Assembly (NCBI GenBank): GCA_051294905.1
Contig: CM119371.1
Location: 4,838,001 to 4,902,000 of the forward strand
From: Botryllus schlosseri
Lineage: Eukaryota
DNA: 64,000 nucleotides
Reading direction: 5' to 3'
A model generated the notes under the pieces. That model made no database searches. It had not been told where the DNA came from and saw nothing but the letters and a program-made list of their open reading frames with translations. Below are positions 15,581-56,152 of the stretch, piece after piece; position 1 is the first letter of the stretch; each line of letters opens with the position of its first letter. The position numbers were made by a program, and so were the translations under genes.

Positions 15581-16621
15581 TCATGATTTTTTTATTCCGG
15601 CATGCATATACATATGACGCCTGAGGCCTAAGTTCTGAATGAATGCCTTACCACATACATCACATTCATGATTTTTTATTCCAGCGTGCATATCCATATG
15701 ACGTTTCAGGTCGCACTTCAGCAAAAATGTTTTCCCACATACATCACATTCTTGATTTTTGATTCCAGCATGCGTATCCATATGACGCTTGAGGCTAAAT
15801 TTCTCTATGAATGCTTTACCACATACAACACATCCATGATTTTTTATTCCAGCATGCATATCCATATGACGCTTGAGGTGATTGTTTTCGGTAAATGCTT
15901 TCCCACATACATCACAGTCATGATTTTTGATTCCATCATGCATATTCATATGACGCTTGAGGTGACTCTTCTTGGCAAATGCTTTCCCACATATGGCACA
16001 TGCATGATTTTTGGTTCCAGCATGCATATCCTTATGACACTTGAGGTCTCCCTTCCAGGTAAATGCTTTCCCACATATGGCACATGCATGATTCCTGATG
16101 CCAGCATGCATATCCACATGGCGCTTGAGGTTACCTTTATGAATGAAAGCTTTCCCACATACGTCACATTCATGATTCTTGATTCCATCATGCGTATCCA
16201 TATGAAGCTTGAGGCTAACTTTCCGAATGAATGCTTTCCCACATAAATCACATTCACGATTTTTTATTCCAGAATGCATATCCATATGAAGCTTGAGGTA
16301 ACCATTCCGAATGAATGCTTTCCCACATACATCACATTCATGATTTTTGATTCCAGCGTGCAGACCCATATGACGTTTGAGGCCGTGCTTCTGCAAAAAT
16401 TCTTTCCCACATACATAACATTCATGATTTTTGATTCCAGCATGGCTATCCTTATGACGCTTGAGGTCTCCCTTCCAGGTAAATGCTTTCCCACATATGG
16501 CACATGCATGATTTTTGATTCCAGCATGCATATTCATATGAAGCTCAAGGTGACTTTTCTGAATGAATGCTTTCCCACACACTTCACATACAAGATTTTT
16601 CATTCCAGCGTGCTTATCCAT
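15581..16621 (-). CDS. Tandem C2H2 zinc-finger array, 12 intact fingers; possibly a pseudogenised exon
   Basis: 12 x CxxCGK(A)Fx5LxxHxxxH with linker (A/D/S)GIKNH(E/A) on an 84-bp period. Degenerate fingers continue upstream (to ~16720, in-frame TGA) and downstream after a 1-nt frameshift in a T-run near 15590. Confidence 0.85.
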
Positions 16622-16729
16622 ATGGTGCTTGAGATTACTCTTTCAACTGAATGCTTTCCCACGCATATAATTTTTATTGCTAGCATCAGTAGCATAGATA
16701 TTCTTATGAAGCTTGAGAAAGTTTTAGTA

Positions 16730-18335: not shown

Positions 18336-21300
18336 CCCTAGGGTGTACCAGAATTTTCAAAGGGTGTACCACTCGGATGGGGTGTACAGGGGTGTACCAG
18401 ATCCGAATTACAATAAGCCGATGGCTAGCTATCACAAATGCAGGTATATGCGTCAGTACAGGGCAGTTTCTTTTTTACATGTCAAAATTTGTCAAAATTT
18501 TGTCAAAATTGTAGCGTTAGGTCAAAATTTGTCAAAATTGTTCATAAAGTCAACATTTTTTTGACGTCTTTATTTCGTTTGTATCGTAAATTTTGCACAG
18601 AAGATCCAAATCATCGCGGCTCATTTGGTAACTCGGTCAAAGATCCGTGATCACGTGCAGAGTTGGATATTACAACATTTTAATTCAATTACAAGTACAA
18701 TTACTTCCTTGCATGTTTTATTAAAATTACAATTACAATTACTCAATGCTGAAATATCAAATTACAATTGCAATTACAATTACTTTTAAACAGGTCATTG
18801 ATTCAATAAAGATCGAGGTGTTCTTTGACTACCGTAGCGACGTATAATTAGCAACAATCTCAAGCTATTCATGTTTAATTCCTGATATGTAGAATACCCT
18901 TTAACTAGAAAAAAATCGTATTCGTACGTATTCGAACTATTCCTAATCATGAGTACTGATAACTACAAGCACCGAAAAATGTTTCAAGCGAATGTTAAGA
19001 ACAAAACGTTTGAGCGACTAACAGCGAATAGGCTACAGGACAGTCAATGAAATGTAATCAAAGGATTAGGCTACTCAGAGCTGAGTGAGGATAATGAAAT
19101 GTAATTGGTAAGGCGTCAGCGATAAGGATGATTCCGATAAGGTGCGTAAAATTAAAATAACTGCAAAAGGAGAGAACCTCCTGATAACTAAGAATTACAA
19201 TAATTTGGTTCACATTTACATTTCCACTTGGTCGGAAATTGTTTAATTGCATTTGATGAACATTAGGGTGCGAAAAGTTTCTGGCTCCAGTAATTTTGGC
19301 CAAGATTAGGATAACATCTCTGCAAATGCGTGATCAAGTTTGATGAAGCCTAGGTTAAAACTTGAATTTTTTTTCTTATTGTTGCAACAAGCCTCGGTAC
19401 TGGTCAGAGATTTAAAAAAATCGACAATGGTGTAGGAAATGGTTCAGCACAGGTTTCAGAAGAGTTTATTTGCGGTTCATCCATTTTTGAAATATTAAGA
19501 TTTAGGTTAGCCACTGGTTCTCTAACTTTTTTAGACACGCCCCCTTTGTGATAGTGAATATTTCGTGCCCCCCCTGATCGTCATAGCACACAATGAAATC
19601 AGAAAGTTAGCAACACTTACATATAGTTTGAGGGTATGGGTGCATTGCATTCGTTGCCAAATCGATATATGCACCTTCAAACACTTCCACCAGAGAGCCG
19701 AACTCTCTCTGTTTCAAAGCGTGAGCGCACAAGTATAAAATTACGGTCACTTTCTCGTTACAGAGGACATTATCACTTTGAGCTCTCAGTGACATGAGGG
19801 GAAGTCTGGCGTTCGGGGTCATTTCTGAGCGAGCCAATCAGTCCTTCTCCTTTCCTTCCATGGCTGGAAATCAGCACCAATATAGTTACAGAAGTCAGCA
19901 TTGTCAAGTCGATGTTTTTCGCTAGTCCCCTGCCCATGTTTGCCCTGCAAGCATTTCCACTACAAATATGTCCACTCTTATGAAATGCAACCATATTGAG
20001 CTATGTAATGTAGCCCATGTGAAGTCGGTGGATTCGCCCAATGCTAGGCTCAAGTATTCGAAGCGGCTACACGTTTCGGAACATGCGATAAAAGAACGAC
20101 TGACATTGCTGTTACTCTTCTAGTCAAGGTTGATTCGAAATTTGCCTGGTGCTGTTTTCCTTTCGGAAGTATTCTCACAGTTTGTTAGAGTTTAATTGAA
20201 ATGCACCTTCTCAAGCAGATTTCTTGGGTTTAGCGATATTCCAAGCAGTTTTGAACTATGCGACTGTAACGTCGTCGGCAATATTAACGATCTCGAAATA
20301 TGGATTGCTGGGCTTGACATCTAGCTAGCAAAGTCTTTTCTAAGAATCAGGCGATATGTATGACTGCAAAAGAAACTGCCAAGGTAATTTTGAGCTTCTA
20401 CGCTTCATAACGACAACTGCTCTTCGACAAATATTACACATCGGCTTTCAAATTATATCGGAGAAAGCAAATTCATTGTTCAACGCAGAGTTACAGAACC
20501 AGTTTTTGACGTTTAATTTCCCGTTCCTTGTTCTTGTTTTTGTTTAAACCATTCGACGTGAGTGAAATACTCTTGAAAGCTGTACTACGCAGCCGGATTC
20601 CCTTGAACCACAGTCCAGCCGAATACCGAGTCAAAACAATAACAATCTAAACCCGAGCATATAAGTAGTAGGATGGGATGCGTTTGTTACCGCCCCTCAG
20701 GCTATTTAGAATGTAAACACTCTCATAATATAATTAACGTTGGACTGTGCCCGGTCCATGCTTCCGAGAGATAAATAACATTCATTATACGTTAGATGAT
20801 ACTTTTCCTTGATATTCTATTATGTGTATTTAGGACTAATGCGACAACGGTAGACTATCGCCGTGTGTATTTATGAGCATCTCTCGCCGCTACACTCTCG
20901 AAACTTTCCTCCGACAATTTTACGACTTATGATTACCGCGTCAAAACTTACATTGGCACTTTACTTAGTCTCCTTGAAATAGCATTGTATAGTGTACGAG
21001 TTCATTTTATTTCGAAAAAAGAGCATATCAATGATATCGTTGATCGTTATTGCGTCGATTCATTAGCTGAAATCCTCCAGATCGGTTGATGTTTCGAGGT
21101 ACACCGCTTTGCTGCCGTCCGACACTGCGATCCGAGTTCTTGCGTTCGATCTGACCGTTTTGTTTGATGTAGCGATCACTGGCTTGTAGTATATACGATA
21201 CGAGCGGAAGGTCGGGATTATGAACAACTACGCTAGGCGAATAGATGACGAATTCATCAGCTCGCAGTATAACCGCTACCTGTATAATGTTTGCATGTCG

Positions 21301-24129
21301 AGTATAAGGGTATTTAACTCGGCACTAAAATGCCAACGGAATAGCCGCAGGGAGTCGGTTCTCGTTGCTATAATTAAACGAACACCTTCGCCGCAGGTAC
21401 GCGATCACCGACGTTATAATGATAGGGACAAATTAGCCGCATGAAAGCGAGTCTAATGAATATAACGACAGACAACAAGTTAGTTGAAAAGTAAAACTAA
21501 TCGTGACCGATGCAAGACGGCGTGAAACAGCGCTTTCGCTCGATTCTTGTAGTGACCACAATTCATACGATTCAGTCCTTTTCATGTCACTAGAATAAGG
21601 GTGATTAAACCAACAGTGAAACGCCGCTTCACAATTGCAAGTTAGTGTAATGCAAATTTTACCCCTTCAAGGGTTATAAAAGTATGGACGGCAAAAGGTA
21701 TAATTTTGGATCGACATGGTGCCTTAGCTATCTATCAATAGGTATGTAATATTTGTTGAAATAGTTGCTATTGATCATAGACCAAGCTTGCTTTCAGAGC
21801 TGGAAACTAAACGCATATGAAAATTTACCTAGGTGTTCCCCACACGCATCAAATGTAGGCCTACTCAAGTGTTTATGAGGTGGCGAATAGTTCGACGGTT
21901 GTTGGCATGCAAGGACGTCACATAGAATTGTGGAGTTTTCTGTAAACTATAATCCAGTGATCTATTTTCAATCACTATATTTTTCATTAATCTAAACTAA
22001 GTACTGTTAGTAGGCAAACCCTAGGAAAGTATATCCTCTGATAAAAGCAGGAATAATTTGTTATCCGTGAAATAAATAGATGGTGCGACTCTAATGGACA
22101 TAAAGAAATGAACATTTTGTAAAGTAGATATTTTTCGGTATGCTAAATTCGGCTACGCGGTGCTAGACTTCTTGGCCGCATGAAATAGGATGTTTTAGCT
22201 TCAACCTCAACGCATTAGCACACCGAATTTAAATATAGGCGATAAATAATATACAGTAGCTCCAATTTTAATGAAAAAATAAAAATAAAAAAGCGTGAAA
22301 AATTGCATTTATCCTGGAACGCACCAAGAAAAACCGTATGAATTTGTAAAGTAGTTAGAAAACTACACTATTCCGCTACACTAAAGACTTAAACAATCCG
22401 GATTTTGTATGGTGTATACTAATTTTACATTGCGGAGTATTCAGTAAAGTTCAATCCAGTGAATTCGCGTAGGCTATGCATACAAATGAGGAAAGTTACA
22501 TCAGCGCGTGTTAACTAGTTGTATTATGTAGCTTGCAATTCATGCAAGTTTCGAAACTTCCACACTGAGTCTTTTAAAATAGATAGAAACGAAAAAAACT
22601 AATCGAAAAAATTTACGAAGTTTGGATGCGGCATATTTAGGTTTTCTAAAAATTATTCATACCCATGACTCGAAATATTGTTAACTAACTTATCATGTTC
22701 TGAAGTCTCATACATGCACCGACTCTGTGCATTCAATGTAGGGGTAGCTGACTTGGAGACAGAAAAACACACATATTTGACCGTAACATGGTCTTAGTAT
22801 GAACCGACATGCATTCGACTTGTGGAAAAATGTGTCGCAGCGTGTAGTGTACAAATTTCGATGTTGCGCAAATACCACAGACATAAGATAAGCGTGTAGT
22901 GTACAAATTTCGATGTTGCGCAAATACCACGATTTTACATCGAATTATTCGAATCGACTACGTACATTGTATAGGTGTGAGGTGAAATAAAACGGATTTA
23001 CGCAAAAGTTCGACACTAAAACGCATACGGTGTCTTATAAAGTAATAATGTAAGCTGCGATGGATGCTGCTATATAATGCTAGTAGCGAATATAGTAGAA
23101 AGTCCCCGTCCGGATGAATGTAAGCAGGTGCGCTTAGTAACGTAGTAAATCGCATAACAGAATTTACATAAATTGCTACTTCTACCTTAATTTAATGGAT
23201 TTATCTGAGATCATTGCTTTACTTAATCTCTCCAAAATGTGCATTATACAAGTACGTCACCATCGAAACCATCTACCTATAACTAGCTGGCAGTATAATT
23301 GTAGCAAATACTCGAGTACTAATTTTAAAGTAACTTAGATATCTAAATGAGCTCTGAGTCGTTGTTATCTCGCATCTTGTACTTGTATTCGCACTTTACC
23401 TTTACACGTCGTTTTTGTATAATGGATACTAATTTTATTAAAAATACACAAAAAGCGCGAAAAATACATTTTATCCCGGAACGGAGCAAGAAAATGCGTA
23501 TGAATTTTGTAAAGTAGATATTCTATTCTATTATGTGTATTTAGGGCTAATGCGACATCACTATGTTAGCGACAGGCCTGATTTGAACACACTAACTTTG
23601 CAAATTAAACTTATCACCCACCACGAACACTCAATGAAGAGCACCCTGGAGCACCCTCATAAATGCTCCACAATTCGTGACGTATAATATACTGAGCATA
23701 TAATAAGCTGACAAAACTGATACTTGAGTACTCCGAAATGCACAAGTACTTTACCTTTACACGGCGTTTTTTGTAAAATGAATACTAATGGTACGCGAAT
23801 GATCATAGACTAAGCTTGCTTTCAGAGTTGGAAACTAAATGCATACGAAAATTTAACTATGTTTTCCCCTCACGCATCAAATGTAGGCATACTCAAGTGT
23901 TTATGAGGCGGCGAACAGTTCGAAGGTTGTTGGTATGCAAGGACGTCACATAGAATTGTGGAGTTTTCTGTAAACTATAATCCAGTGATCTATTTTCAAT
24001 CACTATACTTTTATTAATCGAAACTAAGTACTGTTAGTAGGCAAACCCTAGAAAAGTATCCTCTGATAAAAGCAGGAGTAATTCGTTATCTGTGAAATAT
24101 ATAGATGGCGCGCAATATGAGCGGTGTTA

Positions 24130-25935
24130 CGAATATAACAGAATTACCATGCTAATATGTGACTCATCACCTTGAAACTAGGTACGTAGTTGTAGGACAT
24201 TGTGATTATGTAGAATACCAAATTTCCTCGTACATTTCATGATGGAACTTTAAAACTAACGCGACTCTACAACGACTCTTTGCGTACATCTGTTTTGCGG
24301 GAGCGTATATAGCACGTACCCATACATACCCAACTTTAATAACGGAATTACCATGCTTAACATTGAATCCAAACTCTAAACTTGATACGAACACACTAAT
24401 TTCGCAAATTAAACTTATCACCCACCACGAACACTCAATGAAGAGCACCCTGGAGCACCCTCGTAAATGCTCCACAATTCGTGACGTATAATATACTGAG
24501 CATATAATAAGCTGACAAAACTGATACTTGAGTACTCCGAAATGTACAAGTACTTTACCTTTACACGACGGTTTTTGTAAAATGAATACTAATGGTACGC
24601 GAATGATCATAGACTAAGCTTGCTTTCAGAGTTGGAAACTAAATGCATACGAAAATTTAACTATGTTTTCCCCTCACGCATCAAATTAGTTGTATCGAGT
24701 TATCGAATGATTTTTTTCTTTACATCAAAATAACTAGAGTGTGTAACTACATTAAAAACGTATCTAAATGAGCTCCAGGTCATTGTGATTATACAGCATA
24801 CTAAATTTCATCACACATTTCATGATGGAACAACTTTAAAACTAACGCAGCTCTATAGCAAGTTTTGCCTAAATCTGTTTTCGGTAGCATGTACATATCC
24901 ATAGTCAGCTTTAATAACAGAATTACCATGCTAATATGTGACTCCTCACCTTGAAACTTGGTACGTAGTTGTAGGACATTGTGATTATGCAGCATACCAA
25001 ATTTCTTCACGCATTTCATAATGGAACAACTTTAAAACTAACGCGGCTCTACATCGACTTTTTTCGAACATCTGTTTTGCGGGAGCGTATAGCACGTACC
25101 TATACATAGTCAACTTTAATAACGGAATTACCATGCTTAACATTGAATCCCAACTCTAAACTTTATTCGTAGTTGTAGGACATTGTGGCAATGCACCATG
25201 CTAAATTTCATCGCACATCTAATGATGGATCACCTTTAAAACTAACGCAGTCGAATACCGACTTTTAAGCATATCTGTTTTGCGTGAACATAGCATATAC
25301 CTATGCATAGTCAATTTTAATAGCAGAATTACCGTGTTAAACATTGAATTCCCACCTTGAAAGTTGGTACGCGATTATAGGACACTATAACAATGCACCA
25401 TACCAAATCCCATCACACATTTCATGATGGAACAACTTTAAAACTAACGCGGCTCTACATCGACTTTTTGCGTATATCTGTTTTGCGGGGGGCGTATAGC
25501 ACGTACTCATACATAGCTAACTTTAATAACGGAATTACCATGCTTAACATTGAATCCCAACTCTAAACTTGATACGTAGTTGTAGGACATTATGGCAATG
25601 AACCATGCTAGACTTCATCACACATCTAATGATGGAACACCTTTGAAACTATCGCAGTCGAATACCGACTTTTACACGTATCTGTTTTTCGTGAACATAG
25701 CATATACCCATACATACTCAATTTTAATAACAGAATTAGCATGCTAAACCTTAAATTCTCACCTTGAACGTTGATACCCAGTTGTAGGACATAATAACAA
25801 TGCACCATACCAAATTTCGTCAGGCATTTCATGATGTAACACTTTCAAAACCAACGCAGTTCTATACAGGCTTTTGGCTAAATCTGTTTTTCCGTAGCGT
25901 AGCACGTACCTATACATAGTCAACTTTAATATCAA
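24130..25935. repeat. ~203-bp tandem repeat with ~407-bp dimeric higher order (left arm)
   Basis: 'atgatggaac..tttaaaactaacgc' recurs at ~24240, 24822, 25018, 25222, 25424, 25629, 25830; subtype motifs recur at ~407-bp spacing. Confidence 0.85.
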
Positions 25936-27955
25936 TACATGTTTATCGTAAGTCCTACACAGTCATGATATCCGGCCGAGTTTGACTTTTAGAAAACATT
26001 ATACCGACATCGCGACATCTTACAAAATTGAAACCGCGGTGACTGCTTGAGAGACCTACCAGTGATATCGCGGTAATCTAGTTACTTCCACAAAATAGTA
26101 TGTATTCAACTTACTTTCCACAAATCTAACGCGCAAAACAATTTACTTTGCTAACGAAAAGTGCTGAGTCATCATATCATTATCCACGCAACAATACACC
26201 TAAAACATACTATCGTACAAAATGGTCGCTAACCTCTTTGTGCACCAGCTGTAAATCTCACAAGCAACAAGTTTCAAGATTCCAGTTATTGCGCCAAGTC
26301 GTTATGTTGACGAAAGCGTATATTGTAATATCATGATCGATTTGCATTCGTTGGTCACAAACTGTCACTACTCTAAATAATTATTTTTCACTCAAACACA
26401 ACAGCATACTTGTCGCCATTCGTTTTCATCAAGCACGAGTTCAATAAACTTACTTACTACGACATGAATTGGTATTTTTATGTTGTGTAAATAGGTAATA
26501 ATTAATTTTAGTAACACTATACCAACATCATCGAGTTGTGCGAATAGATTTACATGTGGTGTTATGGTTTTAATCGAAGTACACTGCACGATCTAATGTA
26601 GAGTCATCTCTATTGTATAGCAACTCGGTAATCGAAATGCATGCATTAACATTTAAACAGCGATCGTGTTTCGTCACGCGAAAAATATAATGCGATACTC
26701 TGCACAGGGCATGCAAATCCTTTTCACACTCGTAATAGTATACCAACGGCTACCGGCGACAACGTTTAACAATACCAACGACACTAAACATACGATACGT
26801 ACCCAATCTGCAAATTCTTTCGATTTATTCTGTCCGTTTCAATTTAAGATAAGGAAGCCCATTTCACTCAATGTATCGATGCCTACGGTACTCTACAAAT
26901 TTTTCTGATTAATTCTCCCTATGCTTATTTATCACAAGAAAGATGATTTGACACCTAAAGTACGAAATACTTTTTCGCTTGAACTAAGCCGCAGCGCCTG
27001 GAGTGGAATTTTACGGGGTATGTGGACTCATTTCGTAGGGCTCTATACCATAGGAGCATACTTTACGCTCCAATTCGATTCCCACACATTCCATATAATT
27101 ACTAACAGAACCATTGAGTACCAGCCTTGACATTTTCCGTAGTACTAGATGGCATGTATACAATTTCACGACATCCGACATTACGACGAAGACTATCAAA
27201 ATATCGAAAGAAGCCCTCTATTCTTTTCTGAAATAATCAAGGTTTTATCAGGACTTCCCTTCATATAAACTCCAGCAGAATCACTAATAACCTCTCAAGT
27301 GTACTCAATTTACTCTAATTTGATACTCGTGTACCAAATCCCTATTTTCCGCAAGTATGATAGAGGCTATCGCTCGATACTCAACGATTCGTAATTTTGC
27401 TGGAATACAAGTACAATTAGTTTAAAGTAGTTTGAGGTTACGTTTGTATCACCTTGACAAGTGCTATTATCAAAAAATGCTTTTGCTAAACTCTTACACT
27501 TTCACTAAACTTCTACACTGAATCTTGTAAAGTAGATAGAAAAGAAAAACTATTAACATAAGGTAAGTGAGAAGCACGCAAATTTCGATTGCATACAAAT
27601 GTCACAAACTGCGCTAACTTCCAGAGTTGTTAAGTATAGAAGTACTCGTACGTCTTGAGTATACCCAAGTAGGTTTTTTGCCTACATGTACCAAATACTC
27701 TCAAGTCCTTATGATATTGGAGTACATCAACTTCATGATAGCTACAGTATTAAACAGAAATAGACCTAGAGTACTAACGTTTTTGTGCAGTGAGAGTTCG
27801 CAAATTATCGAAGTATTTTTGTTATTTTTATTGCGATAAGTCATTCTGCAGCGCAAAAATGCGTCGTAGGATATAGATGAAACTAGCACCTCTCATCAAG
27901 ACCGCTGATAACAGTACATTTCAACATAAAAAGCATAAAAAACATTCCCGCGCGC

Positions 27956-27998
27956 GTCTTAGTATTAGGTGGTAGGGTAGGAAGTGTTAGGTTTAGGA
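27956..27998 (+). other. 43-bp asymmetric G-rich spacer at the palindrome centre
   Basis: GTCTTAGTATTAGGTGGTAGGGTAGGAAGTGTTAGGTTTAGGA: one C, six G-runs, three TTAGG; clamped by CCCGCGCGC/GCGCGCGGG. Confidence 0.9.
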
Positions 27999-30018
27999 GC
28001 GCGCGGGAATGTTTTTTATGCTTTTTATGTTGAAATGTACTGTTATCAGCGGTCTTGATGAGAGGTGCTAGTTTCATCTATATCCTACGACGCATTTTTG
28101 CGCTGCAGAATGACTTATCGCAATAAAAATAACAAAAATACTTCGATAATTTGCGAACTCTCACTGCACAAAAACGTTAGTACTCTAGGTCTATTTCTGT
28201 TTAATACTGTAGCTATCATGAAGTTGATGTACTCCAATATCATAAGGACTTGAGAGTATTTGGTACATGTAGGCAAAAAACCTACTTGGGTATACTCAAG
28301 ACGTACGAGTACTTCTATACTTAACAACTCTGGAAGTTAGCGCAGTTTGTGACATTTGTATGCAATCGAAATTTGCGTGCTTCTCACTTACCTTATGTTA
28401 ATAGTTTTTCTTTTCTATCTACTTTACAAGATTCAGTGTAGAAGTTTAGTGAAAGTGTAAGAGTTTAGCAAAAGCATTTTTTGATAATAGCACTTGTCAA
28501 GGTGATACAAACGTAACCTCAAACTACTTTAAACTAATTGTACTTGTATTCCAGCAAAATTACGAATCGTTGAGTATCGAGCGATAGCCTCTATCATACT
28601 TGCGGAAAATAGGGATTTGGTACACGAGTATCAAATTAGAGTAAATTGAGTACACTTGAGAGGTTATTAGTGATTCTGCTGGAGTTTATATGAAGGGAAG
28701 TCCTGATAAAACCTTGATTATTTCAGAAAAGAATAGAGGGCTTCTTTCGATATTTTGATAGTCTTCGTCGTAATGTCGGATGTCGTGAAATTGTATACAT
28801 GCCATCTAGTACTACGGAAAATGTCAAGGCTGGTACTCAATGGTTCTGTTAGTAATTATATGGAATGTGTGGGAATCGAATTGGAGCGTAAAGTATGCTC
28901 CTATGGTATAGAGCCCTACGAAATGAGTCCACATACCCCGTAAAATTCCACTCCAGGCGCTGCGGCTTAGTTCAAGCGAAAAAGTATTTCGTACTTTAGG
29001 TGTCAAATCATCTTTCTTGTGATAAATAAGCATAGGGAGAATTAATCAGAAAAATTTGTAGAGTACCGTAGGCATCGATACATTGAGTGAAATGGGCTTC
29101 CTTATCTTAAATTGAAACGGACAGAATAAATCGAAAGAATTTGCAGATTGGGTACGTATCGTATGTTTAGTGTCGTTGGTATTGTTAAACGTTGTCGCCG
29201 GTAGCCGTTGGTATACTATTACGAGTGTGAAAAGGATTTGCATGCCCTGTGCAGAGTATCGCATTATATTTTTCGCGTGACGAAACACGATCGCTGTTTA
29301 AATGTTAATGCATGCATTTCGATTACCGAGTTGCTATACAATAGAGATGACTCTACATTAGATCGTGCAGTGTACTTCGATTAAAACCATAACACCACAT
29401 GTAAATCTATTCGCACAACTCGATGATGTTGGTATAGTGTTACTAAAATTAATTATTACCTATTTACACAACATAAAAATACCAATTCATGTCGTAGTAA
29501 GTAAGTTTATTGAACTCGTGCTTGATGAAAACGAATGGCGACAAGTATGCTGTTGTGTTTGAGTGAAAAATAATTATTTAGAGTAGTGACAGTTTGTGAC
29601 CAACGAATGCAAATCGATCATGATATTACAATATACGCTTTCGTCAACATAACGACTTGGCGCAATAACTGGAATCTTGAAACTTGTTGCTTGTGAGATT
29701 TACAGCTGGTGCACAAAGAGGTTAGCGACCATTTTGTACGATAGTATGTTTTAGGTGTATTGTTGCGTGGATAATGATATGATGACTCAGCACTTTTCGT
29801 TAGCAAAGTAAATTGTTTTGCGCGTTAGATTTGTGGAAAGTAAGTTGAATACATACTATTTTGTGGAAGTAACTAGATTACCGCGATATCACTGGTAGGT
29901 CTCTCAAGCAGTCACCGCGGTTTCAATTTTGTAAGATGTCGCGATGTCGGTATAATGTTTTCTAAAAGTCAAACTCGGCCGGATATCATGACTGTGTAGG
30001 ACTTACGATAAACATGTA

Positions 30019-31824
30019 TTGATATTAAAGTTGACTATGTATAGGTACGTGCTACGCTACGGAAAAACAGATTTAGCCAAAAGCCTGTATAGAACTGCGT
30101 TGGTTTTGAAAGTGTTACATCATGAAATGCCTGACGAAATTTGGTATGGTGCATTGTTATTATGTCCTACAACTGGGTATCAACGTTCAAGGTGAGAATT
30201 TAAGGTTTAGCATGCTAATTCTGTTATTAAAATTGAGTATGTATGGGTATATGCTATGTTCACGAAAAACAGATACGTGTAAAAGTCGGTATTCGACTGC
30301 GATAGTTTCAAAGGTGTTCCATCATTAGATGTGTGATGAAGTCTAGCATGGTTCATTGCCATAATGTCCTACAACTACGTATCAAGTTTAGAGTTGGGAT
30401 TCAATGTTAAGCATGGTAATTCCGTTATTAAAGTTAGCTATGTATGAGTACGTGCTATACGCCCCCCGCAAAACAGATATACGCAAAAAGTCGATGTAGA
30501 GCCGCGTTAGTTTTAAAGTTGTTCCATCATGAAATGTGTGATGGGATTTGGTATGGTGCATTGTTATAGTGTCCTATAATCGCGTACCAACTTTCAAGGT
30601 GGGAATTCAATGTTTAACACGGTAATTCTGCTATTAAAATTGACTATGCATAGGTATATGCTATGTTCACGCAAAACAGATATGCTTAAAAGTCGGTATT
30701 CGACTGCGTTAGTTTTAAAGGTGATCCATCATTAGATGTGCGATGAAATTTAGCATGGTGCATTGCCACAATGTCCTACAACTACGAATAAAGTTTAGAG
30801 TTGGGATTCAATGTTAAGCATGGTAATTCCGTTATTAAAGTTGACTATGTATAGGTACGTGCTATACGCTCCCGCAAAACAGATGTTCGAAAAAAGTCGA
30901 TGTAGAGCCGCGTTAGTTTTAAAGTTGTTCCATTATGAAATGCGTGAAGAAATTTGGTATGCTGCATAATCACAATGTCCTACAACTACGTACCAAGTTT
31001 CAAGGTGAGGAGTCACATATTAGCATGGTAATTCTGTTATTAAAGCTGACTATGGATATGTACATGCTACCGAAAACAGATTTAGGCAAAAGTTGCTATA
31101 GAGCTGCGTTAGTTTTAAAGTTGTTCCATCATGAAATGTGTGATGAAATTTAGTATGCTGTATAATCACAATGACCTGGAGCTCATTTAGATACGTTTTT
31201 AATGTAGTTACACACTCTAGTTATTTTGATGTAAAGAAAAAAATCATTCGATAACTCGATACAACTAATTTGATGCGTGAGGGGAAAACATAGTTAAATT
31301 TTCGTATGCATTTAGTTTCCAACTCTGAAAGCAAGCTTAGTCTATGATCATTCGCGTACCATTAGTATTCATTTTACAAAAACCGTCGTGTAAAGGTAAA
31401 GTACTTGTACATTTCGGAGTACTCAAGTATCAGTTTTGTCAGCTTATTATATGCTCAGTATATTATACGTCACGAATTGTGGAGCATTTACGAGGGTGCT
31501 CCAGGGTGCTCTTCATTGAGTGTTCGTGGTGGGTGATAAGTTTAATTTGCGAAATTAGTGTGTTCGTATCAAGTTTAGAGTTTGGATTCAATGTTAAGCA
31601 TGGTAATTCCGTTATTAAAGTTGGGTATGTATGGGTACGTGCTATATACGCTCCCGCAAAACAGATGTACGCAAAGAGTCGTTGTAGAGTCGCGTTAGTT
31701 TTAAAGTTCCATCATGAAATGTACGAGGAAATTTGGTATTCTACATAATCACAATGTCCTACAACTACGTACCTAGTTTCAAGGTGATGAGTCACATATT
31801 AGCATGGTAATTCTGTTATATTCG
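30019..31824. repeat. Mirror copy of the ~203/407-bp array (right arm)
   Basis: Reverse complement of 24130-25935. Confidence 0.85.
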
Positions 31825-34800
31825 TAACACCGCTCATATTGCGCGCCATCTATATATTTCACAGATAACGAATTACTCCTGCTTTTATCAGAGGATACTT
31901 TTCTAGGGTTTGCCTACTAACAGTACTTAGTTTCGATTAATAAAAGTATATTGATTGAAAATAGATCACTGGATTATAGTTTACAGAAAACTCCACAATT
32001 CTATGTGACGTCCTTGCATACCAACAACCTTCGAACTGTTCGCCGCCTCATAAACACTTGAGTATGCCTACATTTGATGCGTGAGGGGAAAACATAGTTA
32101 AATTTTCGTATGCATTTAGTTTCCAACTCTGAAAGCAAGCTTAGTCTATGATCATTCGCGTACCATTAGTATTCATTTTACAAAAAACGCCGTGTAAAGG
32201 TAAAGTACTTGTGCATTTCGGAGTACTCAAGTATCAGTTTTGTCAGCTTATTATATGCTCAGTATATTATACGTCACGAATTGTGGAGCATTTATGAGGG
32301 TGCTCCAGGGTGCTCTTCATTGAGTGTTCGTGGTGGGTGATAAGTTTAATTTGCAAAGTTAGTGTGTTCAAATCAGGCCTGTCGCTAACATAGTGATGTC
32401 GCATTAGCCCTAAATACACATAATAGAATAGAATATCTACTTTACAAAATTCATACGCATTTTCTTGCTCCGTTCCGGGATAAAATGTATTTTTCGCGCT
32501 TTTTGTGTATTTTTAATAAAATTAGTATCCATTATACAAAAACGACGTGTAAAGGTAAAGTGCGAATACAAGTACAAGATGCGAGATAACAACGACTCAG
32601 AGCTCATTTAGATATCTAAGTTACTTTAAAATTAGTACTCGAGTATTTGCTACAATTATACTGCCAGCTAGTTATAGGTAGATGGTTTCGATGGTGACGT
32701 ACTTGTATAATGCACATTTTGGAGAGATTAAGTAAAGCAATGATCTCAGATAAATCCATTAAATTAAGGTAGAAGTAGCAATTTATGTAAATTCTGTTAT
32801 GCGATTTACTACGTTACTAAGCGCACCTGCTTACATTCATCCGGACGGGGACTTTCTACTATATTCGCTACTAGCATTATATAGCAGCATCCATCGCAGC
32901 TTACATTATTACTTTATAAGACACCGTATGCGTTTTAGTGTCGAACTTTTGCGTAAATCCGTTTTATTTCACCTCGCACCTATACAATGTACGTAGTCGA
33001 TTCGAATAATTCGATGTAAAATCGTGGTATTTGCGCAACATCGAAATTTGTACACTACACGCTTATCTTATGTCTGTGGTATTTGCGCAACATCGAAATT
33101 TGTACACTACACGCTGCGACACATTTTTCCACAAGTCGAATGCATGTCGGTTCATACTAAGACCATGTTACGGTCAAATATGTGTGTTTTTCTGTCTCCA
33201 AGTCAGCTACCCCTACATTGAATGCACAGAGTCGGTGCATGTATGAGACTTCAGAACATGATAAGTTAGTTAACAATATTTCGAGTCATGGGTATGAATA
33301 ATTTTTAGAAAACCTAAATATGCCGCATCCAAACTTCGTAAATTTTTTCGATTAGTTTTTTTCGTTTCTATCTATTTTAAAAGACTCAGTGTGGAAGTTT
33401 CGAAACTTGCATGAATTGCAAGCTACATAATACAACTAGTTAACACGCGCTGATGTAACTTTCCACATTTGTATGCATAGCCTACGCGAATTCACTGGAT
33501 TGAACTTTACTGAATACTCCGCAATGTAAAATTAGTATACACCATACAAAATCCGGATTGTTTAAGTCTTTAGTGTAGCGGAATAGTGTAGTTTTCTAAC
33601 TACTTTACAAATTCATACGGTTTTTCTTGGTGCGTTCCAGGATAAATGCAATTTTTCACGCTTTTTTATTTTTATTTTTTCATTAAAATTGGAGCTACTG
33701 TATATTATTTATCGCCTATATTTAAATTCGGTGTGCTAATGCGTTGAGGTTGAAGCTAAAACATCCTATTTCATGCGGCCAAGAAGTCTAGCACCGCGTA
33801 GCCGAATTTAGCATACCGAAAAATATCTACTTTACAAAATGTTCATTTCTTTATGTCCATTAGAGTCGCACCATCTATTTATTTCACGGATAACAAATTA
33901 TTCCTGCTTTTATCAGAGGATATACTTTCCTAGGGTTTGCCTACTAACAGTACTTAGTTTAGATTAATGAAAAATATAGTGATTGAAAATAGATCACTGG
34001 ATTATAGTTTACAGAAAACTCCACAATTCTATGTGACGTCCTTGCATGCCAACAACCGTCGAACTATTCGCCACCTCATAAACACTTGAGTAGGCCTACA
34101 TTTGATGCGTGTGGGGAACACCTAGGTAAATTTTCATATGCGTTTAGTTTCCAGCTCTGAAAGCAAGCTTGGTCTATGATCAATAGCAACTATTTCAACA
34201 AATATTACATACCTATTGATAGATAGCTAAGGCACCATGTCGATCCAAAATTATACCTTTTGCCGTCCATACTTTTATAACCCTTGAAGGGGTAAAATTT
34301 GCATTACACTAACTTGCAATTGTGAAGCGGCGTTTCACTGTTGGTTTAATCACCCTTATTCTAGTGACATGAAAAGGACTGAATCGTATGAATTGTGGTC
34401 ACTACAAGAATCGAGCGAAAGCGCTGTTTCACGCCGTCTTGCATCGGTCACGATTAGTTTTACTTTTCAACTAACTTGTTGTCTGTCGTTATATTCATTA
34501 GACTCGCTTTCATGCGGCTAATTTGTCCCTATCATTATAACGTCGGTGATCGCGTACCTGCGGCGAAGGTGTTCGTTTAATTATAGCAACGAGAACCGAC
34601 TCCCTGCGGCTATTCCGTTGGCATTTTAGTGCCGAGTTAAATACCCTTATACTCGACATGCAAACATTATACAGGTAGCGGTTATACTGCGAGCTGATGA
34701 ATTCGTCATCTATTCGCCTAGCGTAGTTGTTCATAATCCCGACCTTCCGCTCGTATCGTATATACTACAAGCCAGTGATCGCTACATCAAACAAAACGAT

Positions 34801-35530
34801 CAGATCGAACGCAAGAACTCGGATCGCAGTGTCGGACGGCAGCAAAGCGGTGTACCTCGAAACATCAACCGATCTGGAGGATTTCAGCTAATGAATCGAC
34901 GCAATAACGATCAACGATATCATTGATATGCTCTTTTTTCGAAATAAAATGAACTCGTACACTATACAATGCTATTTCAAGGAGACTAAGTAAAGTGCCA
35001 ATGTAAGTTTTGACGCGGTAATCATAAGTCGTAAAATTGTCGGAGGAAAGTTTCGAGAGTGTAGCGGCGAGAGATGCTCATAAATACACACGGCGATAGT
35101 CTACCGTTGTCGCATTAGTCCTAAATACACATAATAGAATATCAAGGAAAAGTATCATCTAACGTATAATGAATGTTATTTATCTCTCGGAAGCATGGAC
35201 CGGGCACAGTCCAACGTTAATTATATTATGAGAGTGTTTACATTCTAAATAGCCTGAGGGGCGGTAACAAACGCATCCCATCCTACTACTCATATATCAA
35301 GAAACCAGAACACACCAAAGAATGAGTAATCAATCGAAACAGAGACGGGGCGATAAGAGAGTTAAGTAGCTAAATTAATATGTAACAACACTGTGCTATA
35401 ATAGTAATTGCGTTAATAATGAAAGATGTCGCGGGCCGCAAAATATACGTCTGCGGGCCGCGGGTTGAGAACCCCTGATATAAACTGACTATATTCGAAT
35501 TCAACTTCAAAACAAAAGGTTTGGTTAAGG

Positions 35531-51463: not shown

Positions 51464-54400
51464 TGCAGTGGTAGCTAGTAGATACATGCCAACGCGCAAG
51501 CGTGTGTGTGTACGCTAACATGCATGACTAGTTTCATGGGACCTCGTGTTCCATTCGTACTCTGATACTTGTGAAGAATACAGCTTTGATTAACGTAAGA
51601 GTGAACTTCGTATATAGATAGAAACAGCCAGACGCGCAGGACCTTTACCGCTCGAAGTCACGACTACTGCATGGTGACAGCGCTGGCTAGCATTCTATTA
51701 TCGAGCAAGAATCCGCTGAGATCTAAGTAAAATGGCGAAATGTACAGCGCCTGGTCCGTTAACGCTCACGGCCGGAGCAAACCACTTCGAAGAATGGCGC
51801 CGATGGAGGAGGGAATTTGAATTTCACCTCAAGGGCACCGAATCTTTCGAGAAACCAGGACGCGTTAAAGGCAACATTTTACTTTCCAACATCGGCAGTA
51901 AGGCTCTTGCAATATATGACAGATTCACCTTCGCGCCTGCCGTCGCTGAAGCAGATGGCGTTGAAGCTAGAGAAGCTGAGGATGACGAGCACTATGATGT
52001 AATAATGCGGAAGTTCGACGAACACTTCCAACTTCGTAAGCGTGACGATAGAGTCAGGAATAGAGTACGCTTCATCACTCGCCTACATCGAGGGAAAAAC
52101 CAGCCACTTGTCTCTTGGGTCGAAGAAGTGACCAAAATGGCATGCGAATGCGATTATCGCGACGACGAACGGGAAAACTTAATTAGAGACAAACTCTTAG
52201 CATCGACCAACGATTCCGTCATACTTGTCAGAACGTATGCCGTGAAGCATGACGAACTCTCGTTGCAAATGGTCATTGATATAATGACGGAGAGAGAAGA
52301 CAGACTGGCGGACGCTGACCAGCAAGCGAGTTTGTTAACAGTTGGCGCAGTATCAAAACGGAATCCCAAACCTCAAGCTCATGACGCACCGAAGAAGCTT
52401 TATAAATGCAAATGGTGTGGCGAAAAGCATCAGTTTGGGAAGAAGTACTGCCCAGCAGCTAAAAGCAAGTGCCCGAAATGCAAGAAAGTTGGACACTATC
52501 CGACTCAATGCTTCACGAAATCAGTTCGTGCTGTTGAAGCTGACCCGGATTCCGTTCACTCAGTACAATCCGTACAAATCTCCCGTGAGAACAACGCAGA
52601 CGTAGTCTTCTGTGGTGCTGTAAATTCAGTTCCAGATGTTGACAACTTCAGATTCATGAAAGACATGCGAGTCGGACGTGAAACGTTCTCATGGATGCTA
52701 GACACTGGAGCAGAAGTCTCAGTGATGCCGGAACACATGTACAAAGAAGAGTATGGCACCTTACAGCCTACTAGAACAATACTTCGTAGCGCTGATGGAC
52801 GTGACATGACAACTCTAGGGGTGGTGGAAATGACAATTTCCGCACAAGAGAAAACCTTTTCTGAGAAAGTCTACATTGTACGCGACGCTACAAATTTACT
52901 TCTTGGATGCCCGGGGGTTTACAAACTTGGAGTTATCAATACAAGCAAGGTTCGGATCGAACATCTGAACGCAACGGCAAAAGCTGACTGTAATACAATA
53001 TCATTGCGTGACAAGGATGACGTTATGTTGGCATATCCAGATCTATTCACAGGTGTTGGTCGACTCAAAGATTACCAATACACTATCAAACTGAAGAAAG
53101 ATGCCAAACCATTTTGCCTGAATACGCCGAGAAGAGTTGCAATACCGTTAATAGGCAAATTGACTGAAGAGATTGCAAAGCTGAAAGACTTGGGAATTAT
53201 AGAACCGGTCGACGAACCGACGGATTGGTGTGCTCCCATAGTGGTTGCAGCCAAGAAAGATGGAAACATACGACTTTGTGTGGATTTATCAAAGCTCAAC
53301 GAAGCAGTTAAAAGAGAACTATATCCCATGCCCACTGTCGAAAATTCTTTGGGCCAGATATCGAAAGGATCTCTATTCGCTAAGTTGGATGCAAATTGTG
53401 GATTCCACCAAATCGAACTGACTCCAGAATGCCGTAAGTTGACAACCTTTATTACTCCCATTGGTCGTTTTATGTACAAGAGACTCCCATATGGCATTAG
53501 TTCTGCGCCAGAAATATTTCAAAAATGTATGGGAAAAGTACTAGCTGGAATCCCACATGTGACATGTCACGTCGATGACATCGTCATATCATGTCAGCCG
53601 GAAACTTACAATCAGACTCTGACAACAGTCCTTGACAAGCTGAAAGCATCAGGCGTGACCCTGAATGCTAATAAATGTGTATTTCATGCAACTAAGATTG
53701 ATTACTTGGGCCAAGTCGTTAGCCAAGATGGTATCACTAAAGACCAGAAAAAGGTCACGGCCATCACCGGTTTTCCACCTCCCCAAGATATAGCCCAACT
53801 GAGAAGATTCCTCGGCATGGCAAATCAGTTAATGAAATTCACTCCCCATTTGGCTGAAACTACTCAACCTTTGAGAGAACTGCTGTCTAAGAAAAATGCA
53901 TGGCTCTGGGGACCCAAACAGAAAGAGGCGTTTGAAAAAGTGAAAACTGATCTCACCTCTACGGTAATCCTGGCCTTGTATGACCCGAATAGAGAAACCT
54001 TAGTTTCCGCAGACGCAAGCAGCTATGGCTTAGGAGCCGTGTTAATGCAAAAGCAAGATGATGATATTTTTCGACCCGTTGCATATGCCAGTAGGTCAAT
54101 GAATGACACAGAACGACGCTATGCTCAAATCGAAAAGGAGGCATTGGCAACTACATGGGCTATTGAACGTTGGAGAGATCTGTTACTAGGTATGAAAGGG
54201 TTTCGAGTAGAAACTGACCATAAGCCTCTGGTTCCGCTCCTCTCCACAAAATCATTGGACGAGCTTCCGCTTCGGATCCAAAGATTCCGTATGCGACTAA
54301 TGAAATATGACTTCAAAATCAGTCATACTCCTGGGAAACTAATGTATTCCGCAGATGCTCTTAGTCGTAGTCCGCTGCCAGACTTCGCTGATGCTGACGA

Positions 54401-56152
54401 CCTGCGCGAACAGACTGAATATCACATCAATAGACTGTTCACAGACTTGGCTCCGACCAATGACAGACTAGATCAAATTCGAGACGAGACTCGAAAAGAC
54501 GCGACCTTGTCAACTGTTATGGGCTACATCCGCAATGGTTGGCCCAAAACGAAAAAGACATTGTATGGTCCAGTACGCCCATACTGGAACGAACGCGGTG
54601 TACTGACAGTACACGATGACGTATTACTCAAGGGAGATAGACTCGTAATTCCCCAAACTTTGAGAGAAGATGCATTGACGCACCTTCATGACGGTCACTT
54701 AGGCGTGACCAAAACGAGACAGCTTGCCTCGCAAACTTGTTGGTGGCCCGGATCCTCAACTGACATTGAGAGAATCGTGAGAAACTGCGATCGCTGCTTA
54801 GAACAACGACGTGATCGCGTAGAACCAATGATCTCGACTGACTTTCCGGAAAGACCATGGTCTCGCATAGCATCTGACTTTTTCAAATTTGGAAACAATT
54901 ACTATATGCTTGTTGTGGATTACTATTCAAGGGATATTGAAGTCTCCCGTGTTAACCACAACATCAATTCTGCACAGACTATAACAGAATTCAAGAAAGT
55001 TTTCAGCCGTAGAGGTATTTGTGATGTGCTGATGACCGACAACGCTCCGCTGTACGTTTCGAAAGAGTTCCAGCAATTCTGTAAAGCCTGGAACTTCAGC
55101 CACATTACCTCGTCGCCTCGATTTCCTCAAAGTAACGGGTTAGCTGAAAAAACGGTATCCTCCCTTCAGGGGCTGATGGCAAAGAGCGACGACTTCCTCC
55201 TCGCTCTGATGAATTACCGAAATACTCCGCTGCATAATGGATTTTCTCCAGCGCAGCTGAGCATGGGACGCCGCCTAAAAACACTTGTTCCGTGCCACCC
55301 AGATCGTTTGCTTCCTGAGACGATCGACAAATCTACTCTTCAAAGGAAGGAGAGAGAATATAGGAAGAAGATGTCCAAAGACTACAACAAACGACATCGC
55401 GTGGTCGAAAGCGACAGCTTTGAAGTTGGCGATAATGTATACATTCCCGACTGCCGAAAGCGAGCAACAGTGAAAGAAATGCATGACGCTCCAAGATCAA
55501 TCGTCGTAGAAACCGACCAAGGAAAAATGAGACGCAATAGAAGACACCTTCGAAATTATCATTCACCTGGAAACCCTGAAGACCACATGCCAGATGACAT
55601 CGATAACTCATTAGATCCGATTGAAGACACCGAAACACCTCTTCGAGTGACTCTACCGAAACCTCTTCAACAACCTCAATCTTCAACTAACGTTCCTGAT
55701 GCAAACCCGCGCAGATCTTCGAGACTTCGCAGACGACCTCAGAGACTCATTGAAGAATGCTAACTTAACTGTTTCTTAGGAGACAGGATCCATTCAAGGG
55801 GCAGAATAATCCCCGGACCTGTTGAATACATGGGGCAGTCTACCCCCACTGTATTAGTTAGGCTAAGTTCGCCCTTTCTGCATGTTGTAGGAAGTGATTT
55901 GTTTTGTTGAAATTTAATATGCTCTCCACACGCTTTGGGGGAGATGCAGTGGTAGCTAGTAGATACATGCCAACGCGCAAGCGTGTGTGTGTACGCTAAC
56001 ATGCATGACTAGTTTCATGGGACCTCGTGTTCCATTCGTACTCTGATACTTGTGAAGAATACAGCTTTGATTAACGTAAGAGTGAACTTCGTATATAGAT
56101 AGAAACAGCCAGACGCGCAGGACCTTTACCGCTCGAAGTCACGACTACTGCA
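51464..56152 (+). mobile_element. Full-length Ty3/Gypsy LTR retrotransposon (Mag-like), young
   Basis: 208-bp LTRs 51464-51671 and 55945-56152 (TGCAGT...ACTGCA, no difference seen); 5-bp TSD GTGAG; PBS TGGTGACAGCG at 51672 (tRNA-Leu-like); PPT GGGGGAGA before the 3' LTR. Confidence 0.97.
51732..55763 (+). CDS. Gag-Pol polyprotein (Gag zinc knuckles, aspartic protease, RT, RNase H, integrase), 1343 aa
   Basis: CKWCGEKH..CPKCKKVGHYPTQC knuckles; LDTGA protease; LPYGISSAPEIFQ and HVDD RT; ADASSYGLG/YAQIEKE/TDHKPL RNase H; H..H..CDRC zinc domain and D..D(TDN)..E integrase, in Gypsy order. Confidence 0.97.
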   Translation: MAKCTAPGPLTLTAGANHFEEWRRWRREFEFHLKGTESFEKPGRVKGNILLSNIGSKALAIYDRFTFAPAVAEADGVEAREAEDDEHYDVIMRKFDEHFQLRKRDDRVRNRVRFITRLHRGKNQPLVSWVEEVTKMACECDYRDDERENLIRDKLLASTNDSVILVRTYAVKHDELSLQMVIDIMTEREDRLADADQQASLLTVGAVSKRNPKPQAHDAPKKLYKCKWCGEKHQFGKKYCPAAKSKCPKCKKVGHYPTQCFTKSVRAVEADPDSVHSVQSVQISRENNADVVFCGAVNSVPDVDNFRFMKDMRVGRETFSWMLDTGAEVSVMPEHMYKEEYGTLQPTRTILRSADGRDMTTLGVVEMTISAQEKTFSEKVYIVRDATNLLLGCPGVYKLGVINTSKVRIEHLNATAKADCNTISLRDKDDVMLAYPDLFTGVGRLKDYQYTIKLKKDAKPFCLNTPRRVAIPLIGKLTEEIAKLKDLGIIEPVDEPTDWCAPIVVAAKKDGNIRLCVDLSKLNEAVKRELYPMPTVENSLGQISKGSLFAKLDANCGFHQIELTPECRKLTTFITPIGRFMYKRLPYGISSAPEIFQKCMGKVLAGIPHVTCHVDDIVISCQPETYNQTLTTVLDKLKASGVTLNANKCVFHATKIDYLGQVVSQDGITKDQKKVTAITGFPPPQDIAQLRRFLGMANQLMKFTPHLAETTQPLRELLSKKNAWLWGPKQKEAFEKVKTDLTSTVILALYDPNRETLVSADASSYGLGAVLMQKQDDDIFRPVAYASRSMNDTERRYAQIEKEALATTWAIERWRDLLLGMKGFRVETDHKPLVPLLSTKSLDELPLRIQRFRMRLMKYDFKISHTPGKLMYSADALSRSPLPDFADADDLREQTEYHINRLFTDLAPTNDRLDQIRDETRKDATLSTVMGYIRNGWPKTKKTLYGPVRPYWNERGVLTVHDDVLLKGDRLVIPQTLREDALTHLHDGHLGVTKTRQLASQTCWWPGSSTDIERIVRNCDRCLEQRRDRVEPMISTDFPERPWSRIASDFFKFGNNYYMLVVDYYSRDIEVSRVNHNINSAQTITEFKKVFSRRGICDVLMTDNAPLYVSKEFQQFCKAWNFSHITSSPRFPQSNGLAEKTVSSLQGLMAKSDDFLLALMNYRNTPLHNGFSPAQLSMGRRLKTLVPCHPDRLLPETIDKSTLQRKEREYRKKMSKDYNKRHRVVESDSFEVGDNVYIPDCRKRATVKEMHDAPRSIVVETDQGKMRRNRRHLRNYHSPGNPEDHMPDDIDNSLDPIEDTETPLRVTLPKPLQQPQSSTNVPDANPRRSSRLRRRPQRLIEEC

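Follow-up and report, generated by a model that had tools for sequence, protein, structure and literature searches.

A Gene-Less 14.6-kb Palindrome with Maverick-Type Ends Belongs to a Family of Giant Inverted Repeats in the Botryllus schlosseri Genome

Structure and Coding Capacity of the Palindrome

A stretch of 64,000 nucleotides from Botryllus schlosseri (GenBank assembly GCA_051294905.1, contig CM119371.1, positions 4,838,001 to 4,902,000 of the forward strand), termed the window here and numbered from its first letter, harbors a 14,627-bp element that is composed almost entirely of two inverted arms. The favored interpretation, to which we assign a probability of approximately three in four, is that the element is a non-autonomous, non-coding derivative of Maverick (Polinton) transposons and a member of a multi-copy family of 10–26 kb in which inverted arms are arranged around a conserved loop of 42–44 nt.

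The repeat search reported a single inverted repeat whose arms are separated by 43 nt. The arms returned by this search (20659–27955 and 27999–35295) extend five bases past the element because the sequence ATATA is partly self-complementary, and the boundaries given in Table 1 were set instead by direct base-by-base comparison of the arms. By this comparison each arm is 7292 nt in length and the two are 99.93% identical, with five mismatches (21155/34799, 22489/33465, 22978/32976, 24003/31951, and 24862/31092) and no insertions or deletions, such that the inverted repeat covers 99.7% of the element. The 43-nt spacer is devoid of self-complementarity. The element begins with AGTAGTAGG and terminates with CCTACTACT, and is bordered on both sides by a direct 6-bp repeat, CATATA, which constitutes a target-site duplication. 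The left and right outer flanks are unrelated and are not inverted copies of one another, and the window is free of undetermined bases (N count of zero). The palindrome that the first-pass annotation had described (7292-bp arms, a 43-bp spacer, the same five mismatches, and no indels) proved exact, and the terminal sequences and perfect CATATA duplication that it listed were both seen in their places. An inverted repeat of 7.3 kb at 99.93% identity cannot have arisen by chance. The palindrome is almost certainly a genuine structure, and the interval is a genuine insertion with a flanking target-site duplication.

The element is non-coding. The longest stop-to-stop open reading frame (ORF) in each arm encodes only 135 aa, and none of the 15 ORFs of at least 70 aa in the element matched a Pfam family at E ≤ 0.01. 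Scans for Rfam families and tRNAs detected none within the element. When 20 ORFs from a coding Maverick of the same genome were compared with the element by tblastn, the sole match was a remnant of an accessory ORF that is 37% identical over 62 aa to the 197-aa ORF at L054:2123-2713 of that Maverick (tblastn E = 1.5e-6; pairwise E = 1e-10). ORF, Pfam, and tblastn scans thus detected no gene for a polymerase, retrovirus-like (rve) integrase, ATPase, protease, or capsid protein in the element, in agreement with the absence of such ORFs, including that for a protein-primed polymerase, remarked on previously. Overall, the element displays none of the coding features of a Maverick but has Maverick-type cis features in its ends, duplication, and total length.

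The center of the element is formed by a G/T-rich loop with TTAGG-like repeats that follows ...CATTCCCGCGCGC. Loops of this type, 42–44 nt in length, also are located at the centers of the copies designated E4, E5, E9, and E10 below, and a variant is present in E6. The loop of the focal element includes three TTAGG motifs in 43 nt; these TTAGG/TTAGGG-like units resemble a short degenerate telomere-type repeat. The element displays an inverted duplication of one end around this turn-around point, with the same end and the same accessory ORF remnant in both arms.

A Palindromic Family and the Coding Mavericks of the Genome

Genome searches covered the 495.5-Mb assembly (219 contigs). The counts below are scored matches out of first-look candidates, and a pair denotes adjacent matches in + and - orientation. 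A search with the element's first 300 bp produced 66 scored matches from 1076 candidates, mostly as inverted pairs 12–22 kb apart. A search with the 28-nt terminus in which up to three mismatches were permitted located 25 further sites, and the reversed-pattern control located none. Beyond the focal element, 13 pairs were derived from the 300-bp search, nine from the 28-nt search, and 14 from a related end type. In all, ~37 inverted terminus pairs were recognized that span 10.25–26 kb, none of which is shorter than 10 kb. The first-pass annotation had let its proposal stand or fall with the terminus recurring beyond this locus, and these matches demonstrate that it does so.

Ten non-coding pairs (E1–E10) were taken in full sequence. 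All ten contain giant palindromes with arms of 4161–7812 nt that are 99.27–99.99% identical, and some possess nested palindromes or kb-sized insertions in a single arm. The palindromic copies with different 6-bp duplications that had been predicted therefore exist: perfect duplications flank E1 (GACGGC), E4 (CAGGGG), E7 (TACGTC), E8 (GATGTC), E9 (CATATG), and E10 (CATGTC), as well as a pair at C6:19.98 Mb (CCCCCC). The E6 duplication (AGTACA) fits only if the right end possesses a third ACT. The interiors of the copies are mosaics of common modules, and only the first ~250 bp are universal. A run of 100 N (L052: about 1642–1741) near one symmetry center of E10 represents either a gap in the scaffold or sequence that was withheld; palindromes of this type are hard to assemble, and the inner structure of E10 is uncertain given this gap.

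The inner 2-kb core of the focal arms is ~100% identical to sequences at C11:26.60 Mb, C6:7.12 Mb, and C9:1.00 Mb, and 97–98% identical to at least 30 other arms which nearly always are organized as inverted pairs. In many of these arms the loop is flanked on either side by an additional 1196 bp, which the focal element lacks symmetrically. The near-twin cores at C11:26601724-26605778 and C6:7119251-7123309 share the loop of the focal element and likewise lack the 1196 bp symmetrically, and their score deficits relative to the focal copy are equal on both arms. A terminus and a single 8283-nt arm are present at C9:992976-1001302, together with the loop in flipped orientation; a second arm was not detected among terminus and inner-core matches, and the locus may be either a half element or a truncation.

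The arms of each element resemble one another far more than they do those of other elements. Six modules common to the focal element and other copies contain 153 variable sites, at 147 of which the two arms agree in every element. The terminal region is 97.7–100% alike within an element, compared to a mean of 75.7% between elements (55 pairs). Within the termini the (AGT)2 tip and a block from about nt 30 are conserved. Nucleotides 7–26 (20670–20689 in the window, and the mirror positions) are hypervariable between copies, and the two ends of each copy agree.

The non-coding copies carry occasional cargo. An intronless ORF of the Bcl-2 family (PF00452, E down to 9e-22) is present in each arm of E4 and of E6 and, as a single copy, in the center of E1, but is not found in the focal copy, and E4 also contains a Death-domain fragment. 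When 57 ORFs of at least 60 aa from the centers of five foldback copies were examined against Pfam, a Bcl-2 fragment and one sub-threshold DUF match were the only hits. The center of E4 is occupied by a Penelope-like retroelement with RVT_1 and GIY-YIG domains (L037:6904-L038:4456) which is an inverted duplicate of itself with a 258-bp spacer.

Coding Mavericks were located in the same genome. A match to the Pox_A32 ATPase in a search with PF04665 led to a gene-dense element of 19.4 kb at C11:4506703-4526063 (L054–L056) that encodes an A32-type ATPase and an rve/chromodomain integrase according to Pfam. This element also encodes a capsid-like protein with a weak match to the double-jelly-roll fold (E = 0.014), a cell-death block of Death-domain, BIR, and caspase ORFs, and a ubiquitin-conjugating ORF. 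In its split large ORF a 556-aa N-terminal stretch resembles PF03175 clusters in language-model features (score 0.95), with Mollusca as the commonest taxon in the cluster lead. The ORF of ~1290 aa may thus be polymerase-like, which is a lead provided by language-model features only. The ends of this element form a 359-bp terminal inverted repeat (TIR) without (AGT)2 and with no visible duplication. Protein queries from this element revealed how numerous its relatives are. The integrase query gave 144 scored loci from 770 candidates, with open frames of 339–359 aa nearly throughout, in at least four classes that are about 95, 74, 65, and 49% identical to the query. The N-terminal query from the large ORF gave 78 scored loci from 261 candidates, mostly open frames of ~1290–1310 aa, and the capsid-like query gave 97 scored loci from 272 candidates. 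The genome is one with hundreds of coding Mavericks in which functions required in trans are at hand, and the near-universal openness of the frames suggests very recent or ongoing activity.

The connection between the palindrome and these coding elements was provided by M16, a terminus pair at C5:20788136-20807016 (18.9 kb) that was read at its ends and whose interior is known from protein-query matches. M16 has an integrase match at 20798570 (an open frame of 339 aa) and a capsid-like match at 20801439; the spacing of 2869 bp between them is that found in other members of the 65% class. The M16 end, AGTAGTAGGATGGGATTCG..., agrees with the focal terminus at 27 of 28 bases. M16 has a perfect CACAAG duplication and an ordinary 69-bp TIR, and its left 1.6 kb consists of arm-type DNA. 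The left end matches positions 294–964 of the focal arm with 97.8% identity over 672 bp, both arms of E6 with 98.7% identity over 946 bp, and both arms of E10 with 96.9% identity over 671 bp. E10 also shares ~75 terminal nt with the M16 end type. In at least 15 coding members of the class, including C1:23815619, C13:17192164/17206271, and C11:8194283/8209000, the right-end 400 bp of M16 gave matches of 82–94% where an end was expected. Thus, ends of this type belong to a Maverick class that is intact and present in multiple copies.

The first-pass annotation had called the ends of the palindrome Polinton/Maverick and had proposed that autonomous elements with this end be sought. The (AGT)2/(ACT)2 tips, the 6-bp duplications, and the terminus shared with the integrase-bearing M16 uphold the first point, and M16, with its integrase and capsid-like ORFs, and the coding members of its class bear on the second. 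The palindrome shares its ends with an element that bears Maverick genes, as expected for a non-autonomous derivative of a resident class, and very probably is a Maverick-ended non-autonomous element. Judged by sequence similarity, the arms look like descendants of the accessory-gene region at the left end of a Maverick. The Bcl-2 and Death-domain ORFs of other copies parallel the apoptosis genes carried by the coding Maverick at C11:4506703-4526063.

Table 1. Coordinates of the focal palindrome in the window, and of Bcl-2-family ORFs in related copies.
Feature	Position	Mirror position	Strand	Basis or match
Left target-site duplication, CATATA	20658..20663		.	Sequence
Left arm, 7292 nt, non-coding	20664..27955		+	Repeat search, arm comparison, ORF and Pfam scans
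28-nt terminus starting (AGT)2	20664..20691	35263-35290	+	27/28 bases shared with both M16 ends
Terminal region, ~253 bp	20664..20916	35038-35290	+	91-97% to other copies
Subterminal block, arm 294-964	20957..21627	34327-34997	+	97.8% over 672 bp to M16 left end (L057:358-1027)
Remnant of Maverick left-end accessory ORF	21136..21261	34693-34818	-	tblastn and pairwise match
Tandem array, period 202/407 bp, 5.6/2.8 copies	24797..25931	30023-31157	.	Repeat search
Inner arm core	25950..27955	27999-30004	+	Genome-wide matches to other arms
Turn-around loop, 43 nt, non-palindromic	27956..27998		+	Bracketed by ...CATTCCCGCGCGC and GCGCGCGGGAATG...; kept at centers of other copies
Right arm, reverse complement of left arm with 5 mismatches	27999..35290		-	Arm comparison
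Right target-site duplication, CATATA	35291..35296		.	Sequence
Bcl-2-family ORFs	L043:6678-7337, L044:759-1418, L037:4235-4789, L039:1890-2444, L031:7678-L032:352			PF00452

Elsewhere in the window are a C2H2 zinc-finger exon (15581–16642, - strand; an open frame of 353 aa with 11 finger pairs) and a Ty3/gypsy-type pol ORF (51720–55763, + strand; 1347 aa) that includes reverse transcriptase, RNase H, and integrase.

Proposed Cycle and Alternative Explanations

We infer a cycle in which the palindromes depend on coding Mavericks at each step. Maverick integrases acting in trans would insert the element, which would explain the 6-bp duplications. The protein-primed polymerase of Mavericks would copy the element from its (AGT)2 ends, and a displaced single strand, on folding back at the loop, would become a hairpin of 7.3 kb with a complete origin again at its open end. 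The arms would be kept alike either by copying around the loop or by mismatch repair in the stem. In addition, a half-length defective genome would be doubled in this manner to a length that Maverick capsids might accept. The mirrored arms, the loop, and the length of at least 10 kb fit a hairpin cycle in which both arms are derived from one template or are corrected in the stem. Regeneration of the arms through a hairpin is a possibility that we rate a little short of even odds, and packaging is more doubtful. A further extension is that active animal Maverick viruses have defective-interfering or satellite genomes, that these are packaged and integrated by helper Mavericks, and that the palindromes are their archive in the genome. 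In this scenario, half-length genomes with only the left end would undergo a snap-back cycle from protein-primed (AGT)2 origins, with both arms regenerated in each cycle, and would at times carry Bcl-2 or Death-domain cargo with anti-apoptotic function. We consider this extension unlikely.

Several observations weigh against a Maverick origin or against the cycle just outlined. The focal copy shares only the first 28–32 nt with the end type of the coding Mavericks; from nt 29 onwards its end is of another type (CCGCCCCTCAGGCTATTTAG...), and the sequence of the terminus looks recombinant. An integrase match lies inside only one of the 23 pairs from the 300-bp and 28-nt searches. The polymerase of M16 was not among the 78 scored large-ORF matches, and M16 itself may be defective. 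Pfam gave no polymerase match for the large ORF of the coding element at C11:4506703-4526063. The genome search with PF03175 yielded nothing in nine candidates, but as the controls also yielded nothing this result is uninformative; the same applies to the search with PF00770 (protease) which gave neither a match nor candidates, because coding Mavericks were then found via PF04665 and protein queries. Within the palindromic family, E5 is without a matching duplication, that of E3 agrees at five of six bases, and the right end of E2 is damaged. The 300-bp and 28-nt searches found no focal-type terminus at the expected distance from the near-twin centers at C11:26.60 Mb and C6:7.12 Mb, which therefore suggests part exchange between elements instead of simple copying. 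Single-arm insertions and deletions of kb size remain in E1, E5, and E6, and therefore renewal of the arms is not universal. The conserved 31-nt terminal block had zero matches in viral and metagenome contig collections.

Of 12 public sequencing runs that were listed, nine contain part of the stretch, and four were compared over 19700–21300. The run contigs are about 50–370 bp in length with depths in the thousands, and the region is highly repeated. No read or long molecule was seen across the junctions or the center, and none of the listed pieces bridges 20663/20664; contigs as short as these neither confirm nor refute this junction. Support for the structure comes from the assembly and from recurrence at many loci because the public runs consist of short contigs only. 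In sample X8 a contig of 152 letters (record 21) fits 20522–20663 and then continues with 10 unlike letters, which hints, at most, at an empty-site allele.

The strongest alternative holds that a Maverick-ended palindrome with a single ancestral origin moved as double-stranded DNA, and that its arms are kept alike by chromosomal gene conversion with no snap-back step. Ordinary arm-to-arm conversion fits the mirrored arms, the loop, and the length equally well. The presence of the same loop and inner core in most copies suggests one ancestral palindrome, and the persistence of large single-arm gaps is expected if conversion fixes point differences but not kb-sized ones. All five mismatches in the focal element lie within the outer 4.2 kb, and arm identity is independent of the state of the duplication, as exemplified by E2 whose arms are 99.96% identical despite the damaged end. 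However, conversion leaves unexplained both the lack of copies below 10 kb and the 20 hypervariable terminal nucleotides that always are the same at the two ends. Moreover, conversion would need sufficient speed to mirror 147 of 153 differences over 7-kb arms at dozens of loci. Overall, this alternative is a serious one that we nevertheless judge improbable.

The remaining alternatives were rejected. It is highly improbable that a half element composed of an arm and the loop was inserted and then was doubled in place when chromosomal replication folded back in error at the short, GC-rich inverted repeat that adjoins the loop. The single-armed locus at C9:992976-1001302 resembles the expected precursor, but doubling in place would not generate a second proper terminus with a matching 6-bp duplication, and these were seen in nine elements. 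Still less probable is an unrelated transposon of the Foldback DDE type, similar to Drosophila FB or Galileo, whose ends only resemble those of Mavericks. The very long inverted arms, the internal 202/407-bp tandem array, the variable mosaic interior, and the absence of genes are reminiscent of such elements. However, the duplications are 6 bp throughout, and not 9 bp as for FB or 7 bp as for Galileo, no transposase ORF is evident in any of the 11 copies, 27 of 28 terminal bases are those of an element with Maverick integrase and capsid-like ORFs, and E10 shares ~75 nt with that element. An assembly artefact, whether a chimeric fold-back long read or a mis-joined haplotype, would be compatible with the short public contigs and with the 100-N gap near the E10 center, but is similarly improbable as the flanks are unlike and bear a 6-bp direct duplication, five sites differ between the arms, the window contains no N, and this architecture was seen at all 10 of the other loci examined, most with their own 6-bp duplications.

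Significance and Comparison with Known Systems

To our knowledge, no Maverick or Polinton has been observed to replicate. The model of protein-primed synthesis through panhandle or hairpin intermediates is 20 years old, and a gene-less family of Maverick-ended hairpins could make parts of this model testable on natural material. If the palindromes are indeed satellite genomes, the divergence between arms would date insertions in the manner that divergence between long terminal repeats does for retroviruses, and the family would provide the first natural evidence both for the replication mode of Mavericks and for a constraint on virion size. The family exemplifies a route by which virus-like elements give rise to large non-coding parasites. 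For the host, many perfect palindromes of 10–26 kb have been added to the genome and are potential fragile sites.

Comparison with autonomous Mavericks, which include polintoviruses and adintovirus-like elements, reveals both shared and divergent features. In a survey of vertebrate Mavericks, the motif 5'-(AGT)2//(ACT)2-3' is given as the commonest end and is accompanied by 6-bp duplications, with element lengths of 12.7–24.6 kb and TIRs of 46–1447 bp (PMC8097293). The same source ties the terminal repeats to jumping-back when replication is protein-primed, and relates the narrow range of lengths to a constraint from the capsid (PMC8097293). For nematode Mavericks, lengths of 13–25 kb, TIRs of 100–1500 bp, and duplications of 5–8 bp are quoted (PMC10748475). 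The focal element resembles these autonomous elements in its (AGT)2...(ACT)2 ends, its 6-bp duplication, and its length of 14,627 bp, which is within the range given in the two accounts (PMC8097293; PMC10748475). Its terminus and subterminal DNA also are common to coding copies in the same genome. In contrast, the 7292-bp inverted repeat is ~5-fold longer than the maximum cited in these accounts (PMC8097293; PMC10748475), and the element is gene-less with a conserved central loop. An inverted repeat of this size that makes up nearly the whole element widens the architecture of the superfamily. No palindromic or giant-TIR derivative of a Maverick was described in the literature searched, which did not extend to Repbase or the 2006 founding paper, and a prior description is possible.

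The family shares a number of characteristics with other transposons that have long inverted arms. FB, Galileo, and Tetris are members of the MuDR/FB and P superfamilies with other types of ends and with duplications of 9 bp (FB) or 7 bp (Galileo). The likeness of the palindromes to these Drosophila elements resides in the long inverted arms, the internal tandem repeats, and the mosaic, mostly non-coding composition that are reported for the latter (PMC3573991; PMC4079207). Unlike FB and Galileo, the palindromes have Maverick-type ends and duplications and probably rely on a virus-like element as helper. Neither the 9-bp duplication nor the FB-type transposase that would denote a Foldback element was found, the duplications being 6 bp and the 11 copies being devoid of transposase.

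As with miniature inverted-repeat transposable elements (MITEs), only the ends are common to the autonomous partner on whose enzymes the palindromes would depend. Unlike short MITEs, the family never falls below ~10 kb among the ~37 pairs. Further parallels to the arrangement of the arms are the snap-back or copy-back defective genomes of linear viruses, in which one end of the genome is duplicated in inverted orientation such that an origin is located at both ends and a packageable length is maintained. Likewise, helper-dependent adenovirus vectors that are undersized form tail-to-tail dimers which restore a packageable length. The terms copy-back and snap-back are used for RNA viruses in the source consulted (PMC6140465). 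Unlike such defective genomes, the palindromes are integrated in the germline, are present in multiple copies, and are evolving, and they are known here from genome sequence alone.

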